The position numbers and the translations under genes were made by a program. Source: a virus. Taken from it: a stretch of 64,000 bases of DNA. Under the pieces are notes generated by a model. That model worked only from the letters and a program-made list of their open reading frames with translations. It did not search any database and was not told where the DNA came from. The stretch covers positions 1-64,000 of the IMG/VR virus record IMGVR_UViG_3300008267_000022. One strand, written 5' to 3'. This document shows, piece by piece, positions 5,332 to 29,616 of the stretch (within the stretch, counting starts at the first letter, position 1; each line of letters starts with the position of its first letter).

Positions 5332-5410
5332 GACACCGAAAGCCCACTTGCGTGAGCTTCCAATGCCGTATAATTAAAAAAGATAGGGCTGTTTTCCGGC
5401 ACAACCCCAA
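5332..5410 (-). ncRNA. candidate antisense sRNA: hairpin - anti-leader segment - GNRA hairpin
   Basis: GGGTTGT/ACAGCCC stem, then TATCTTTTTTAATTATAC, then 16-bp stem with GCAA loop. Confidence 0.5.
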
Positions 5411-11373: not shown

Positions 11374-11754
11374 TTATTCAATTACTTCAATATTAAGTGA
11401 GGAATCAGTAACATCCTCTTCAATGATGTCCTCTTTAACATCTTCAAAACGGCGTAATACTGCATTGATATGATCCATTGCATCATAAACATTGATTTGG
11501 GCATCCTCAAGTTCAATTACATTCCCATAACCAATTGAAAATTCAGCATTTTCCTTATCAACTAAATCACTGCTGTTATAATCTAAACAACGTTCAATTT
11601 CTCCTGATAATTCATCAATTAATTCCTCACTCAATGTTGTTACTGTTTTAACATCATCTAGCTTATTGATGAGTTCAATTACTTTATCAATATCAACCTG
11701 TGATGATAATGCTTTTGCTGTTTCTAGTTGTGCTACTAATTCTGCTTTTTTCAT
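11374..11754 (-). CDS. hypothetical acidic protein
   Basis: Promoter cassette. Confidence 0.7.
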   Translation of the reverse strand: MKKAELVAQLETAKALSSQVDIDKVIELINKLDDVKTVTTLSEELIDELSGEIERCLDYNSSDLVDKENAEFSIGYGNVIELEDAQINVYDAMDHINAVLRRFEDVKEDIIEEDVTDSSLNIEVIE

Positions 11755-17472: not shown

Positions 17473-18054
17473 TTAATATACGAATTCTATTTTATCTTTT
17501 AATACCCTTTTCAAATTAGCTTTAGCTTTAAATAAATTTGATTTAGATGTACCTTCACTGATGCCTAATTCATTTGCAATTTCAGCATGAGAATATTCTT
17601 CAATAACATACATGTTAAATACTATTCTATAAGCAGGAGATAATTTAGCTACTGCTTCTAACATTAACTTAGTAACCCTTTGTTGATCACCTTGCAATTC
17701 AAAATCATATATCTCATCATGATCAGTTGTTTTAAACATACTATCCTGGTCACTTAATGTTATTTTTCGTTTTCGTTTTCGTTCTCTAAGCTTATCAATT
17801 GCTAGATTAACAATGATTCTTTTCATCCAGAACCAAATGTCAACTGTAAAGTTATATGTTGATAGTTTATTAAATATTTTAATAAACCCTTCTTGGAGTA
17901 CTTCATTAGCATCATCTTCATTCCCCATATACCGATAACTAAGAGACATTAATCGACCAGCATAGGTATCAAATAGGATTTTTTGGGATTTTCTATCATT
18001 GTTGATGCACCCTTTAACGATATCTTCTATTTTATTTTTAACTTGGTAATCCAT
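17473..18054 (-). CDS. RNA polymerase ECF-type sigma-70 factor
   Basis: Region 2 DANEVLQEGFIKIF..WMKRIIVN; region 4 LSPAYRIVFNMYVIEEYSHAEIA..LGISEGTSKSNL. Confidence 0.93.
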   Translation of the reverse strand: MDYQVKNKIEDIVKGCINNDRKSQKILFDTYAGRLMSLSYRYMGNEDDANEVLQEGFIKIFNKLSTYNFTVDIWFWMKRIIVNLAIDKLRERKRKRKITLSDQDSMFKTTDHDEIYDFELQGDQQRVTKLMLEAVAKLSPAYRIVFNMYVIEEYSHAEIANELGISEGTSKSNLFKAKANLKRVLKDKIEFVY

Positions 18055-18112
18055 AACTCTTATTTTTACTTAAATATACAACTTTATCTTAATTAAAAAA
18101 TATCCTTTGATA

Positions 18113-18147
18113 AAAAACCTGCCGCACGCTTGCAGTCGCACGGCAGG
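18113..18147 (-). terminator. intrinsic terminator of structured RNA
   Basis: 11-bp CCTGCCGTGCG/CGTGCGGCAGG stem plus TTTTT. Confidence 0.7.
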
Positions 18148-18173
18148 AAAAGAAACGGTTATGAAGCGTTTTG

Positions 18174-18245
18174 TAGTCAGGGTGGGATTCGAACCCACGG
18201 GTACCTATCACTTTTCGATTTATTAAATCTTATAGTAACCTGACC
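18174..18245 (-). ncRNA. tRNA-like RNA (acceptor and T arm, no canonical D or anticodon arm)
   Basis: GGTCAGG/CCTGACT-A; GTGGG-TTCGAAT-CCCAC. Confidence 0.65.
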
Positions 18246-18311
18246 TACCCCGAATTTTCTAGTAGCGGCACTTTTACGCGGCCGTCGGTTCTACTTGCGA
18301 CGATTTTTTGC

Positions 18312-19115
18312 TTAGGCAGCTGTATATTCAGCTGCCATTGCAAATAATTTTTGGTTAATTTCCATATCTTGTTTGAAATTCTTTACTTTACGTGCTTTTC
18401 TAGATTTAGCTCCTGACATGTATGTAAAGTCTCCATCCAAAATTTTCTCTTGGATTACATTAAACACTGACCATAAGTCGCTTCCTTTATCTTCTGGTCG
18501 AGTTGGTTCTAGTAATTTGTCTAAATCGAAACTCATTCCTTCTACTTGATCTTCAGTAAATCTTGTTGTGAGTGCTTTCTTAGCTAGTTCTTTTGCTTGA
18601 TCTTCTGATAATTGGATTTGTTTCATTTTATTCATTGACTCAACTGTCAGTGGTAGTTGTTCAACCATGGCACGAACTTGTTCTTGTAGTTCCTCAAATG
18701 TGTAACCCATATGACGAATTTTTACATTTTCAAATTCCTGTGTTGAAATAACTAGTCCATTCTCACAAACCATTCTAAATAAACCAGCGGTGAATGTAAA
18801 TGCATTCTTCCCATCATTTGAATTAGTTAATAGGATTTGTGGGAATACTGTATCACCATCTGATCCATTGATTACTACATCAGGGTTTCTAAACACGACT
18901 AAATGTTTTTGGTAACCTTGGCCTTTACGGGCTTTAACTTGTTTGGCATCAACTACTCCCCAACCTAATTGTTCCATATCCTCAATCACTCTGTGAGTTG
19001 GGATGTGAATAAATTTGCTTGATACAGTCGGTGCTGCACTTGTTGTGAAAATTGAGTTAGCGCGTTGCTTAACTTCGTCCATTTTCAAAAATCCATCTTT
19101 GCTTAAATCTAACAT
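18312..19115 (-). CDS. DUF932/DUF945-family protein
   Basis: ILLTNSNDG..AF..AGLFRMVCENG; DLWSVFNVIQE. Confidence 0.85.
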   Translation of the reverse strand: MLDLSKDGFLKMDEVKQRANSIFTTSAAPTVSSKFIHIPTHRVIEDMEQLGWGVVDAKQVKARKGQGYQKHLVVFRNPDVVINGSDGDTVFPQILLTNSNDGKNAFTFTAGLFRMVCENGLVISTQEFENVKIRHMGYTFEELQEQVRAMVEQLPLTVESMNKMKQIQLSEDQAKELAKKALTTRFTEDQVEGMSFDLDKLLEPTRPEDKGSDLWSVFNVIQEKILDGDFTYMSGAKSRKARKVKNFKQDMEINQKLFAMAAEYTAA

Positions 19116-19743: not shown

Positions 19744-20087
19744 TTATAAAATTTACTATCATCAATTTCTACCTCAAAATCATCATCAACTGATTCCCAT
19801 TCATCTTTAATTAATTCAATAACATCTTCATCTTCATCTCTATATTCAGGCAATAAACCTAATTTCTCTACCATCCACCAAGCTCTGTCTTTATATGTGT
19901 TGATTGAAATTCCATCCAAATATTTAATTCCTCTTTCTGTTAATATTGACAAATGAGCAATTAAATCACAAGTTAAATAGTCTAATTCTTCTAAGTCAGG
20001 GTTTTTTTCTTTTGCTTTTGCTTTAATAGTTTCCCACTTATCCCAAATGATGCTTTTTTCTATTCTAAATGATTTCTTTTTCTTCAT
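19740..20087 (-). CDS. hypothetical protein
   Basis: AAAGGTTATG leader. Confidence 0.65.
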   Translation of the reverse strand: MKKKKSFRIEKSIIWDKWETIKAKAKEKNPDLEELDYLTCDLIAHLSILTERGIKYLDGISINTYKDRAWWMVEKLGLLPEYRDEDEDVIELIKDEWESVDDDFEVEIDDSKFYK

Positions 20088-20878: not shown

Positions 20879-21652
20879 CTAAATTGCTATTGAGTATTGA
20901 TTAACTAGAGCTGATAGTTGCTTATTTAATCTAATATCTTCATTTAAGTTGCGAACATCAGCAGTTAGATTTTCTTGTATCCTGTTGAATACAGTCCATA
21001 AATCGTTTCCTTCATCTTCAATTCGATTAACTGAAAGTAGATCATTTATATCAATATCATCTAAATTATTGTATCGTAATTTGGCTGCTTCGTAAGCTAA
21101 TTTTCGCATATCTGTTAGGGATAAATTTGTATGTTTTAATTTTTCAAATTCATTTACTATTGTTGATGTTTTTCTAGATACATTTGAAATGTATTGATCT
21201 AAATCATAGTAATTAACTCTGATATGTTTAATTATTTCGCTTTCTGCTGCTTGTTCATACGCAATTGCTCCATTACTACATACTTGGCGATACACTCCTA
21301 AATCTAATTGTAACGGTTTGCTTCCATTACAACTATTTGTAATAGTTAATGATGCTAATGCTTCATTTCTTCCTTTACTATCCTTAATAGCAAAATCAGG
21401 ATGTTGCATTTGAACATAATTATTAACAATTTTACGACTATTACCCCGTTGTTCATTTACCCCAGCTATTTGCCATCCTTCATCTTGTAGTTTTGTAACT
21501 ACATCTATTGTTGGAATGTAGAATTCTTTTGTTTTAATTCTTTGAATGTTTTTAATGTTGTTTACATCCAATGTATTAGCAAAAGCAATTGCTTTGTTTA
21601 AATCATTGTTTACTGGGATGAATTTAGTTAATTTTGAATTTCTTGTTCTCAT
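20879..21652 (-). CDS. DUF932/DUF945-family protein (second paralogue)
   Basis: ITNSCNG...GVYRQVCSNG; DLWTVFNRIQE. Confidence 0.8.
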   Translation of the reverse strand: MRTRNSKLTKFIPVNNDLNKAIAFANTLDVNNIKNIQRIKTKEFYIPTIDVVTKLQDEGWQIAGVNEQRGNSRKIVNNYVQMQHPDFAIKDSKGRNEALASLTITNSCNGSKPLQLDLGVYRQVCSNGAIAYEQAAESEIIKHIRVNYYDLDQYISNVSRKTSTIVNEFEKLKHTNLSLTDMRKLAYEAAKLRYNNLDDIDINDLLSVNRIEDEGNDLWTVFNRIQENLTADVRNLNEDIRLNKQLSALVNQYSIAI

Positions 21653-21836: not shown

Positions 21837-22640
21837 TTATTCTTCTTGATTAAATGCATAATGAACCCCATCATTGTATATTGAGAAATATATTTTAAAA
21901 TCCTTATCGCAATCCCGATTTTTCTCAAAATGCAATGTTCGCTCTAAACCATCTTTACTACGCTCAACTTTACAGAATGCTTCCATCATATGTTTTAATC
22001 TTTGGGATCCTGCAAATTCATCGCTTTTAGTTACTTGTTGAATATTGATAAATGAAGTATAATATCCTTCTGAATTTTTACCTTTTTTAACTTCATCTTG
22101 TAGCTTTAAAAACCATGATTCAGCTTGCTTAGCGGTGCCCCCATTTTGATCCCTATACATGTTTAGTATCTCAGCAACGGAGTCAACTCCAATAACATCA
22201 TATCCTAAACCAAATACATGTTCAATTGTTTCCTTAACATTATCCATATGATCTTTTAAAAATAATGTTTGGATACAACCAAACGAAGGCATTCTTTTAC
22301 AATACTTGTAATGTCCTATTTGATCCATTTCTCCTTGAATTAACAAGCATTTTAATCCTTGCATTGTAAATTTAGATAACATATCTAATACTAATGTTGA
22401 CTTACCTGAACCTGGGCCTCCTGCAATCATCATGCTTGTACCTGGCATTAGTCCTCCTTCAGTAGATAATATAATATCTATTTCTGTGTTGGTTCTAAAT
22501 GGGGTAAATAATGACTCATTGAAATGTAATTCATTACCTCTAAATAATTTAATTACTTCAGGGTTGAATTGTGTTTCTTCAACTTGTTTTTTAGGACGTC
22601 CTCTACGTTCTTCTTTCATTTCTCTTTTTTCGATTTTCAT
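21837..22640 (-). CDS. RecA-superfamily (RadA/Sms-like) ATPase
   Basis: Walker A GGPGSGKST, Walker B IGVDS, FAGSQRLKH, KNR. Confidence 0.8.
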   Translation of the reverse strand: MKIEKREMKEERRGRPKKQVEETQFNPEVIKLFRGNELHFNESLFTPFRTNTEIDIILSTEGGLMPGTSMMIAGGPGSGKSTLVLDMLSKFTMQGLKCLLIQGEMDQIGHYKYCKRMPSFGCIQTLFLKDHMDNVKETIEHVFGLGYDVIGVDSVAEILNMYRDQNGGTAKQAESWFLKLQDEVKKGKNSEGYYTSFINIQQVTKSDEFAGSQRLKHMMEAFCKVERSKDGLERTLHFEKNRDCDKDFKIYFSIYNDGVHYAFNQEE

Positions 22641-28931: not shown

Positions 28932-28946
28932 TTTGTAGTTTTTGTG

Positions 28947-29009
28947 TGGTCAAGGGGGGACTCGAACCCCCTGCTGAGTATAGTGCATTTACCCTTATGC
29001 AACATGACC
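28947..29009 (-). ncRNA. 63-nt tRNA-like RNA lacking an anticodon arm
   Basis: GGTCATG/CTTGACC-A; D arm GCAT/ATGC; 13-nt linker; GGGGG-TTCGAGT-CCCCC. Confidence 0.7.
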
Positions 29010-29013
29010 ATTG

Positions 29014-29081
29014 TAGTGGAGATTTGTAACCAACGCAGGATCACCCCTGTGCTTCGTTTCATTTGTCTTCGGCACTCCACT
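29014..29081 (-). ncRNA. tRNA-like closed-stem RNA
   Basis: AGTGGAG/CTCCACT-A; internal CAGG/CCTG. Confidence 0.45.
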
Positions 29082-29083
29082 GT

Positions 29084-29175
29084 TGCAAGTACTTCTTTTT
29101 TATCTTGCGCCACCATTCATGCACTATCCTATATGCTAATGGTTGTTACTGTACTATAGGATGTCAAGTAACTGC
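29084..29175 (-). ncRNA. closed-stem structured RNA
   Basis: GCAGTTACTT/AAGTACTTGC closing stem; ATCCTATA/TATAGGAT hairpin. Confidence 0.35.
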
Positions 29176-29177
29176 TG

Positions 29178-29250
29178 TTGCGGGGGCCAGACTCGAACTG
29201 ACGATCTCGGCTTATGAGACCGAGCGGATAACCATCTTCCACACCCCGCA
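29178..29250 (-). tRNA. tRNA-Met (CAT), initiator-like body
   Basis: TGCGGGG/CCCCGCA-A; TCGGT-CTCATAA-GCCGA. Confidence 0.88.
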
Positions 29251-29256
29251 ATATTG

Positions 29257-29407
29257 TAGCTCTAGTAGGAATCGAACCCACCTTGTAAATTACTTGTCAA
29301 ATGCCTCACCATTTTGCTCCGATACTAGTATTAAGGAGTCGTAAGCCAAATAACCATCATTCACCCACTCGCAGCTGCTAGGAGCGACCCACGCTTGCTA
29401 TAGAGCC
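29257..29407 (-). ncRNA. 151-nt tRNA-scaffold RNA with large insert
   Basis: GGCTCTA/TAGAGCT-A; GTGGG-TTCGATT-CCTAC; internal hairpins. Confidence 0.65.
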
Positions 29408-29472
29408 ATATTTAGATTTTTAAAACCCATCCCTCGTTTGGGGTAAGGAAACTCCACCTAATGTTTTTTGCG

Positions 29473-29616
29473 TAGTCAGGACAGGATTCGAACCTGCAAA
29501 CCTACCTGTTGCCTCGGTTTTAATTAGCTTGGGTCTTTAACAACACATACCCATAACTAAGTGTCTAATTCAAAAAATCGAAACATTTTGAATCTTACCA
29601 ATTCCACCACCTGACT
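29473..29616 (-). ncRNA. 144-nt tRNA-scaffold RNA with large insert
   Basis: AGTCAGG/CCTGACT-A; D-loop-like GTGGAATTGGTA; GCAGG-TTCGAAT-CCTGT. Confidence 0.7.

Follow-up and report, generated by a model that had tools for sequence, protein, structure and literature searches.

A conserved anti-start hairpin behind a tRNA-like element at the 3′ end of a phage DUF932 gene is a candidate trans-acting regulator of phage translation

Introduction

The phage antisense RNAs known to us (C4, OOP, and sar) each act on one gene or operon, and C4 of phages P1 and P7 blocks translation through exposed loop sequences that pair with mRNA. In Escherichia coli, the RNA 3′ETS-leuZ was reportedly described by Lalaouna et al. 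in 2015. The C4 precursor is described as a substrate of RNase P in a review (PMC11143913) that refers to Hartmann et al., 1995 (PMC41593). 3′ETS-leuZ is a base-pairing RNA that lies in a tRNA trailer, extends up to the operon terminator, and is freed during maturation (bioRxiv 10.1101/2021.04.25.441314). In the MALAT1–mascRNA system, the ends of neighbouring RNAs are set by RNase P and RNase Z, which are drawn to a tRNA-like fold inside a longer transcript (PMC8457004). The bacterial tRNA mimics treated in a 2026 preprint have other motifs.

Here we analyse a module in viral DNA in which a tRNA-like element is followed by a hairpin complementary to gene starts. The window, by which we mean the whole stretch analysed (64,000 nucleotides), covers the initial 64 kb of a viral contig from IMG/VR (83.7 kb) with a completeness estimate of about half. 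A search of Rfam placed the module in none of the known families above, and in full-text literature searches we met no account of anti-leader RNAs located behind tRNA look-alikes in phages.

Results

Source, relatives, and probable host

DNA-sequencing runs that contain this stretch are mostly freshwater metagenomes. All genes around the RNA module lie on the minus strand. The DUF932 protein encoded upstream of the module has 46% identity with its counterpart in Flavobacterium phage immuto. The sigma factor encoded downstream, which has sigma-70 r2 and r4 domains, has phage relatives at 63–98% identity (98% for P0002 and 93% for P0004) and next-best matches at ~50% identity, some of them labelled Crocinitomicaceae by their sources. 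Because DUF932 lies near immuto and sigma near Crocinitomicaceae-labelled proteins, the host is probably a freshwater member of the Flavobacteriales.

We collected more than 10 related contigs by two routes, a metagenome scan with an alignment of the sigma factor and a scan of viral contigs with the conserved 3′ end of DUF932. The contigs that carry the module are labelled L043–L046, L123–L130, and L132, L170 belongs to a different phage group, and L001 is immuto. In viral contigs, a single-protein locus search with sigma returned nothing and an alignment search returned only relatives at 35–44% identity. Neither megablast nor blastn of the region matched any GenBank phage, and no cultured model was found. 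Phage immuto, the nearest cultured relative, has DUF932 and lacks the RNA module; its single CTTCATAAC lies within coding-looking sequence.

The module belongs to the 3′ end of DUF932

The RNA module is the 3′ untranslated region of the DUF932 gene (PF06067, 1e-31; 18312–19115, minus strand), which has a cassette promoter at ~19152 and a TAA stop codon at 18314–18312. A perfect 8-bp hairpin, GGCAGCTG-AATATA-CAGCTGCC (18336–18315, minus strand), takes in the final codons of DUF932 as far as the stop; its z-score is −5.9, and none of 200 shuffles folds as well. This stop-codon hairpin is conserved at the nucleotide level in all relatives, although their DUF932 proteins are just 81–91% identical, and it could therefore be used as a scan pattern; it may protect the 3′ end of the DUF932 mRNA or serve as a nuclease or processing site. 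The features that follow on the minus strand are a GC-rich module of 66 nt between the DUF932 stop and the tRNA-like element (ATCGTCGCAAGTAGAACCGACGGCCGCGTAAAAGTGCCGCTACTAGAAAATTCGGGGTA; 18311–18246), the 72-nt tRNA-like element itself, with acceptor stem, T arm, and discriminator A (18245–18174), the anti-start hairpin (18171–18153; stem AAACG/CGTTT, loop CTTCATAAC at 18166–18158), a U-rich linker, CTTTT (18152–18148), between this hairpin and the terminator, and an intrinsic terminator, CCTGCCGTGCG-ACTGCAAG-CGTGCGGCAGG followed by T6 (18147–18112). The neighbouring promoter-leader cassette of the sigma gene (TTGTATATTTAAGTAAAAATAAGAGTT; 18080–18055, minus strand; ATG at 18054) lies outside the module.

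The terminator has the G+C-rich stem (11 bp, 8 of them G–C) and following U run that characterise intrinsic terminators. Across relatives, 5 of 10 pairs show compensatory changes; MAFFT did not bring the 3′ stem strands of hairpin and terminator into a common register. L125–L128 and L130 have the 66-nt GC-rich module nearly unchanged, always directly 5′ of the tRNA-like element, and it is absent from L044–L046, L123, L124, and L129; it is thus optional. It has no stable fold (z +1.05) and no Rfam match at E ≤ 10. We rejected two candidate identities for it, an HDV-like or theta ribozyme, given these two results and by eye no C in the would-be J4/2, and an ECF-type promoter, as a similar motif was not found upstream of late genes.

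Each DUF932 orthologue at 81–91% identity has the module at its 3′ side. The order of DUF932, stop-codon hairpin, tRNA-like element, CUUCAUAAC hairpin, and terminator recurs in L045, L046, and L123–L130, and the same module is found in L132; L044 has this order without the tRNA-like element. The gene after the terminator in L123–L130 differs from the sigma gene of the window, and L127 and L129 have no sigma match in the 5–7 kb downstream of DUF932. The position just upstream of the sigma gene, noted in an initial annotation of this DNA, is therefore correct for the window and L043–L046 and does not extend to L127 or L129. By these genome comparisons, the module is tied to the 3′ end of DUF932 and not to sigma. 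The window also holds a second DUF932 paralogue (PF06067, 1.3e-18; 20879–21652, minus strand) and a third, equally long ORF (267 aa; 21837–22640, minus strand), neither of which has an RNA module behind it.

Four RNA-library runs were searched as contigs, which are patchy, come mostly from relatives, and do not allow strand or RNA ends to be read. No part of 18099–18311 is covered by a near-identical record in these four runs. Contigs of relatives join the 3′ end of DUF932 to a tRNA-like element, with coverage of the T arm through CTTCATAACCGT, and one contig continues for ~530 nt past the hairpin; RNA contigs of this kind may represent DNA carry-over. They give a weak hint that the module is transcribed.

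The tRNA-like element keeps an acceptor stem and T arm

The tRNA-like element has a 7-bp acceptor stem (GGTCAGG, 18245–18239, and CCTGACT, 18181–18175), a T arm with a 5-bp stem and a TTCGAAT loop (GTGGG-TTCGAAT-CCCAC, 18198–18182), and a discriminator base, A18174. The D arm and the anticodon arm with its 7-nt loop are absent, and the Infernal alignment skips both, confirming the earlier description of a 72-nt element with a perfect T arm and neither of these arms. The 40-nt interior folds instead as a single AT-rich hairpin (z −2.7; 0 of 200 shuffles fold as well). The Rfam tRNA model (RF00005) gave this element 24.1 bits, below its gathering score of 29, leaving the element unlisted at the gathering level. 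ARAGORN called a 'tRNA-Ile(aat)' here with odd boundaries, a call that we do not find credible.

As had also been claimed, the acceptor 3′ strand is common to this element and the RNA at 29473–29616, a 144-nt RNA that likewise ends in CCTGACTA. The latter lies on the minus strand in a tRNA cluster (28945–29616) in which three more tRNA-like RNAs that do not decode are set between real tRNA genes (Leu and Met): the 144-nt RNA, which ends at 29473 and has the shared acceptor stem AGTCAGG/CCTGACTA, a second of ~135 nt ending near 29257, and a third of ~63 nt ending near 28947.

Orthologous tRNA-like elements with other bodies are present in L045, L046, L123–L130, and L132. They differ in almost every lineage and range from 69 to 118 nt. 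Their T stems covary (GTGGG/CCCAC, GCAGG/CCTGC, ACAGG/CCTGT). A tRNA-Leu-type D arm (GUGGCGGAAUUGGUAGACGC) is found in L123, L125, and L127–L130 and is absent from the window and L045, whose interiors differ from each other. L044 has the hairpin and lacks the tRNA-like element altogether, and the putative handle is therefore dispensable and helpful at most.

The pattern GGTTCGAATCCTGNCCTGACNA alone, scanned against viral contigs, matched at least 120 of them, which together carry at least 159 elements. Among the matches listed, 128 of 159 elements are not called as tRNAs by ARAGORN, all have discriminator A, some have a tRNA-Leu-type D arm, and the interiors are diverse inserts. We found no paper on phage tRNA-Leu-frame RNAs with variable inserts. 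The window element has the features of this family ([A/G]GUCAGG/CCUGAC[U/A], discriminator A, T loop UUCGAAU) and resembles it in the acceptor AGUCAGG/CCUGACUA, the T arm, and discriminator A. Many family members, however, keep a D arm and longer inserts, whereas the window copy lacks the D arm and, at 72 nt, is of the shortest type. The best reading is that the window element is a decayed member of a widespread phage tRNA-Leu-derived family, reduced to an acceptor/T-arm minihelix. The acceptor and T arm have stayed whole as the rest decayed, a sign that selection maintains the minihelix. RNase P, RNase Z, and the CCA-adding enzyme need no more than such a minihelix as their substrate. CCA is not encoded in the window's own tRNA genes, which fits maturation by RNase Z.

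The anti-start hairpin has an invariant loop and a covarying stem

The trailer of the window (18173–18112) lies where a 3′ETS-type tRNA trailer would, following the tRNA-like element and running to the operon terminator. Within it, CUUCAUAAC forms the loop of a hairpin with the 5-bp stem AAACG/CGUUU (18171–18153) and begins the segment CUUCAUAACCGUUUCUUUU (18166–18148); the loop is predicted to be open in both the minimum-energy and the centroid fold. In all related contigs, the DUF932 stop is followed by a CTTCATAAC hairpin and then by a terminator. The hairpin starts 3–14 nt past the discriminator and stands behind at least six different tRNA-like bodies.

Across 13 copies in 6 distinct stem contexts, all 9 nucleotides of the loop are invariant. 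The stem, by comparison, occurs in the variants ACG/CGU, CUG/CAG, GCU/AGU, and CCG/CGG, with all 5 pairs changed on both sides and a covariation score that 0 of 500 shuffles reach. An invariant loop combined with compensatory stem changes argues for selection on an RNA hairpin whose loop is sequence-specific. Thus, judged from comparative sequence evidence, the element is real, conserved, and acts at the RNA level. A double-stranded DNA operator at GGTTATGAAG was considered and rejected, as the flanking stem covaries as RNA.

The loop mirrors a start tag common to many phage genes

Thirty-two near-identical promoter-leader cassettes lie on the minus strand between 925 and 23602, ahead of most small genes. 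Their form is [C/T]GTATATTTAAG(G)TATAATTAAAAAAATAAAGGTTATGRA, also given as [C/T]GTATATTTAAG(G)TATAATTAAAAAAATAAAGGTTATG. The cassette boxes and a GTTATG start tag are found in all relatives and are sparser in phage immuto (L001). In the window, the minus strand has 70 copies of GTTATG and the plus strand 12; 48 AUGs that open ORFs are preceded by GUU, and the loop matches 20 over at least 8 contiguous nucleotides (8 or 9).

The loop sequence, CUUCAUAAC, is exactly antisense to GUUAUGAAG, and both the loop and the GUUAUG tag are invariant within the clade. Including the linker and the 3′ stem strand, which extend complementarity beyond the loop, a 19-nt trailer segment is antisense to the A-rich leader AAAAGAAACGGUUAUGAAG. 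The module therefore offers what is expected of the seed of a trans-acting antisense sRNA, an open conserved loop complementary to gene starts. Sequence and fold here agree with the annotation, which had described a trailer complementary to the start region, partly held in a hairpin loop and closed by a strong terminator. Its restriction of the match to the early start region was too narrow: dozens of gene starts are mirrored, and late-region genes (59272, 55707, 52112, 43521) also carry the GUUAUG tag.

When plus-strand positions (~64,000) were scored with a weight matrix built from the 32 leaders, 18148–18166 came first, at 16.7 bits, with three of the four sizes of matrix. The runner-up, inside a coding region, scored 16.1 bits; the window alone is thus not decisive, and the evidence from conservation decides. 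The mean duplex energy of the trailer with gene starts was below that of all 200 shuffled seeds, and the best targets had predicted duplexes of −12 to −15.7 kcal/mol, compared to −10.0 for sigma and −12.2 for DUF932. Compared with gene interiors, start regions as a class showed no significantly better pairing in a crude duplex-energy test (p=0.11), because coding sequence is A-rich and the trailer is U-rich.

The start context reported for Flavobacteriia is A-rich and Kozak-like, unlike the phage tag RGUUAUGRA. A UUAUGA context, as at the starts at 20087, 5020, and 22640, is complementary to U33-CAU-A37-A38 of the anticodon loop of methionine tRNA; an idea of our own is that this context could strengthen binding of initiator tRNA on mRNAs that have no Shine-Dalgarno sequence.

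A second locus carries a longer anti-leader trailer

In L128 (near 852–880) and L129 (5991–6060), another tRNA-like element lies behind unrelated genes and is followed by ACCG[CTTCATAAC]CGGTTTTATCTTTTTTAATTATAC. This trailer, from CTTCATAAC to TTTTATCTTTTTTAATTATAC, is the reverse complement of the 33-nt leader GTATAATTAAAAAAGATAAAACCGGTTATGAAG, which runs from approximately the transcription start to codon 3. The mirrored leader starts at GTATAAT and has no CGTATATTT promoter box, so that the antisense copy covers solely cassette sequence lying downstream of the box. In the window, the minus-strand segment 5381–5363 (CTATCTTTTTTAATTATAC) is antisense to the 5′ part of the cassette leader and homologous to the 3′ half of the L128/L129 trailer. 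As L128 and L129 join both halves in one trailer, the window's findings at 18113–18310 and 5332–5410 are halves of one theme, and the kinship proposed between the two stands. The pairing of a tRNA-like element with an anti-start segment likewise proved to be recurrent: relatives have it at two distinct loci, and at least six different tRNA-like bodies take part in it.

Searching for the acceptor and T-arm pattern across phages, as the annotation had advised, uncovered the family in at least 120 viral contigs described above; the trailers outside the clade are not anti-start. Among the matches listed, 3 of 132 trailers match at least 2 local ORF starts, which is about the level of chance. We therefore rejected anti-start trailers as a general property of the tRNA-like family and regard them as specific to this clade. 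In L170, CCATAACCTAATTTTTCTAAG and G+C-rich hairpins lie on the minus strand just 3′ of a tRNA-like element that ends at locus position 11541 and is the last of a four-element array, and CCATAACCTAATTTTTCTAAG is antisense to the AAAAAGGTTATG starts of that phage. The L170 variant CCAUAACCUAAUUUUUC faces AGGUUAUG starts, in one distant case in which chance is possible; this segment may be an independent variant or a coincidence.

Other readings of the module

The tRNA-like interior is degenerate and has changed freely between the window and L045, a coding-region site comes close to the trailer's score with the leader matrix, and repeated cassettes invite recombination. All of this would be expected if the module had no regulatory role and consisted of a decaying tRNA gene with a stability or terminator hairpin derived from an inverted copy of a leader, so that complementarity would reflect origin only. 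We regard this account as unlikely, because the 9-nt loop has remained invariant while stem and terminator were rewritten with compensatory changes, because the acceptor and T arm persist in a decaying body, and because a tRNA-like element is paired with an anti-leader at two loci.

Recurrence behind unrelated genes also bears on a cis-acting 3′ untranslated region, for which pairing of the 5′ and 3′ ends of Staphylococcus aureus icaR mRNA provides a model. Here, the anti-start hairpin would pair with the start of its own DUF932 mRNA, resulting in autoregulation or RNase III-type decay, and the tRNA-like element would be incidental. The module does lie at the 3′ end of DUF932 in every relative, even where the downstream gene is another one or the tRNA-like element is missing; the DUF932 leader AAAAGUAAAGGUUAUG differs from the trailer complement AAAAGAAACGGUUAUG at 2 of 16 positions, and the predicted duplex is the one of −12.2 kcal/mol given above. 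However, DUF932 begins with AUGUUA in 11 of 11 genomes, which leaves the invariant CUU of the loop without a partner there, the same hairpin follows tRNA-like elements after unrelated genes in L128 and L129, and excision of the tRNA-like element would separate the trailer from the mRNA. Weighing both sides, we think a purely cis-acting role rather improbable.

Phage decoys against tRNA-targeting defences are plausible in principle, and the hairpin could be one if it mimicked the anticodon stem-loop of initiator or methionine tRNA and bound a protein or the ribosome, for example a host anticodon nuclease. Its UUCAUAA sequence has the U-CAU-AA of the window's tRNA-Met genes (CUCAUAA), and the hairpin adjoins tRNA-like elements that have no anticodon arm. 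The loop has 9 nt rather than 7, however, the stem does not contain the G–C pairs of initiator tRNA, and complementarity extends beyond the loop (19 nt here and 33 nt in L129), for which a loop mimic would have no need. A decoy is consequently a quite improbable function for this hairpin.

A small plus-strand gene opened by GGTTATGAAG and encoding MKRFVVRVGF..., which the annotation had named as the case that would overturn its reading, is scarcely credible: AAAAGAAACGGTTATGAAG does resemble a leader and start on the plus strand, but the ORF has 21 aa in the window, 7 aa in L044 (read by eye), and other lengths elsewhere, the shared GFEP is merely the reverse of the T arm, no CGTATATTT cassette promoter faces that way, all neighbouring genes are on the minus strand, and the hairpin covaries in the manner of an RNA rather than of codons.

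Discussion

Given the anatomy, conservation, RNA-level covariation, and complementarity observed, we infer the transcription, cuts, in vivo pairing, and direction of effect in the following model. We put at roughly even chances that the module combines an RNase P/Z-type processing handle with a trans-acting anti-start RNA that tunes phage translation. The DUF932 promoter would drive a transcript through the module to the terminator, with the tRNA-like element acting as a cutting and stabilising handle. RNase P would cut at 18246/18245 and RNase Z after A18174, and this excision would leave a DUF932 mRNA capped by the stop-codon hairpin. The freed trailer of ~62 nt (18173 to ~18112) would contain the anti-start hairpin and the terminator hairpin. 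Its loop CUUCAUAAC, with a YUNR U-turn (UUCA), would kiss the GUUAUGAAG start region common to many phage mRNAs, and pairing could then spread into the A-rich leader over up to 19 nt. The start codon would be masked and translation lowered, or the duplex would be cleaved, and the trailer RNA would serve as a throttle or timer for many phage genes. To our knowledge, Bacteroidota generally have no Hfq, and pairing by the trailer would therefore have to work without that chaperone.

A more ambitious version of this model is possible, and we advance it tentatively, considering it more doubtful than probable. In it, the phage would mark most of its genes with a private start tag, RGUUAUGRA, and would control them through one matched master antisense RNA, cut from an mRNA tail by host tRNA-processing enzymes by means of a non-decoding tRNA shell, which would act as a genome-wide timer or throttle of translation on ~50 messages in a host phylum without Hfq. 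Approximately 50 target species for one RNA raise a concern about stoichiometry.

If the model is correct, an RNA aimed at the start tag of dozens of genes would be a new means of post-transcriptional timing or throttling of a whole phage programme, and some non-decoding phage tRNA look-alikes would gain a concrete role as processing handles. The module would also be a natural model of chaperone-independent pairing between a loop and start codons in Bacteroidota, in which sRNA biology is little known. The combination of tRNA shell, seed hairpin, and terminator would be a ready-made scaffold for synthetic RNA regulators.

Comparison with known systems

In its proposed form, the module is like C4 in that a tRNA-processing enzyme releases a phage antisense RNA from within a longer transcript, a step that for the module is predicted. 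C4 has one target operon (icd/ant), downstream in its own transcript, whereas the window module faces a motif common to dozens of genes. The module, unlike C4, also has a separate tRNA-like element upstream of the antisense hairpin, and the two have no homology in sequence or structure. The Rfam C4 model had no match at E ≤ 10 in 18000–18400; the only C4-related match, to c4-a1b1 (E 0.79), is on the other strand over the DUF932 stop-codon hairpin and is attributable to chance.

The window trailer and 3′ETS-leuZ have the same position, between the 3′ end of a tRNA or tRNA-like element and the operon terminator. 3′ETS-leuZ, however, sponges sRNAs, depends on Hfq, and lies behind a real tRNA, whereas the window trailer lies behind an element without decoding capacity, is presumed to target the start sites of mRNAs, and would operate in a phylum, that of the likely host, in which Hfq is generally missing. 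MALAT1–mascRNA differs in being a eukaryotic nuclear long noncoding RNA, with no homology to the window module and no antisense role for its by-product. On present sequence evidence, the module is best classed as antisense control with tRNA-type processing, with a predicted function and an unusual feature, its many-gene target set.
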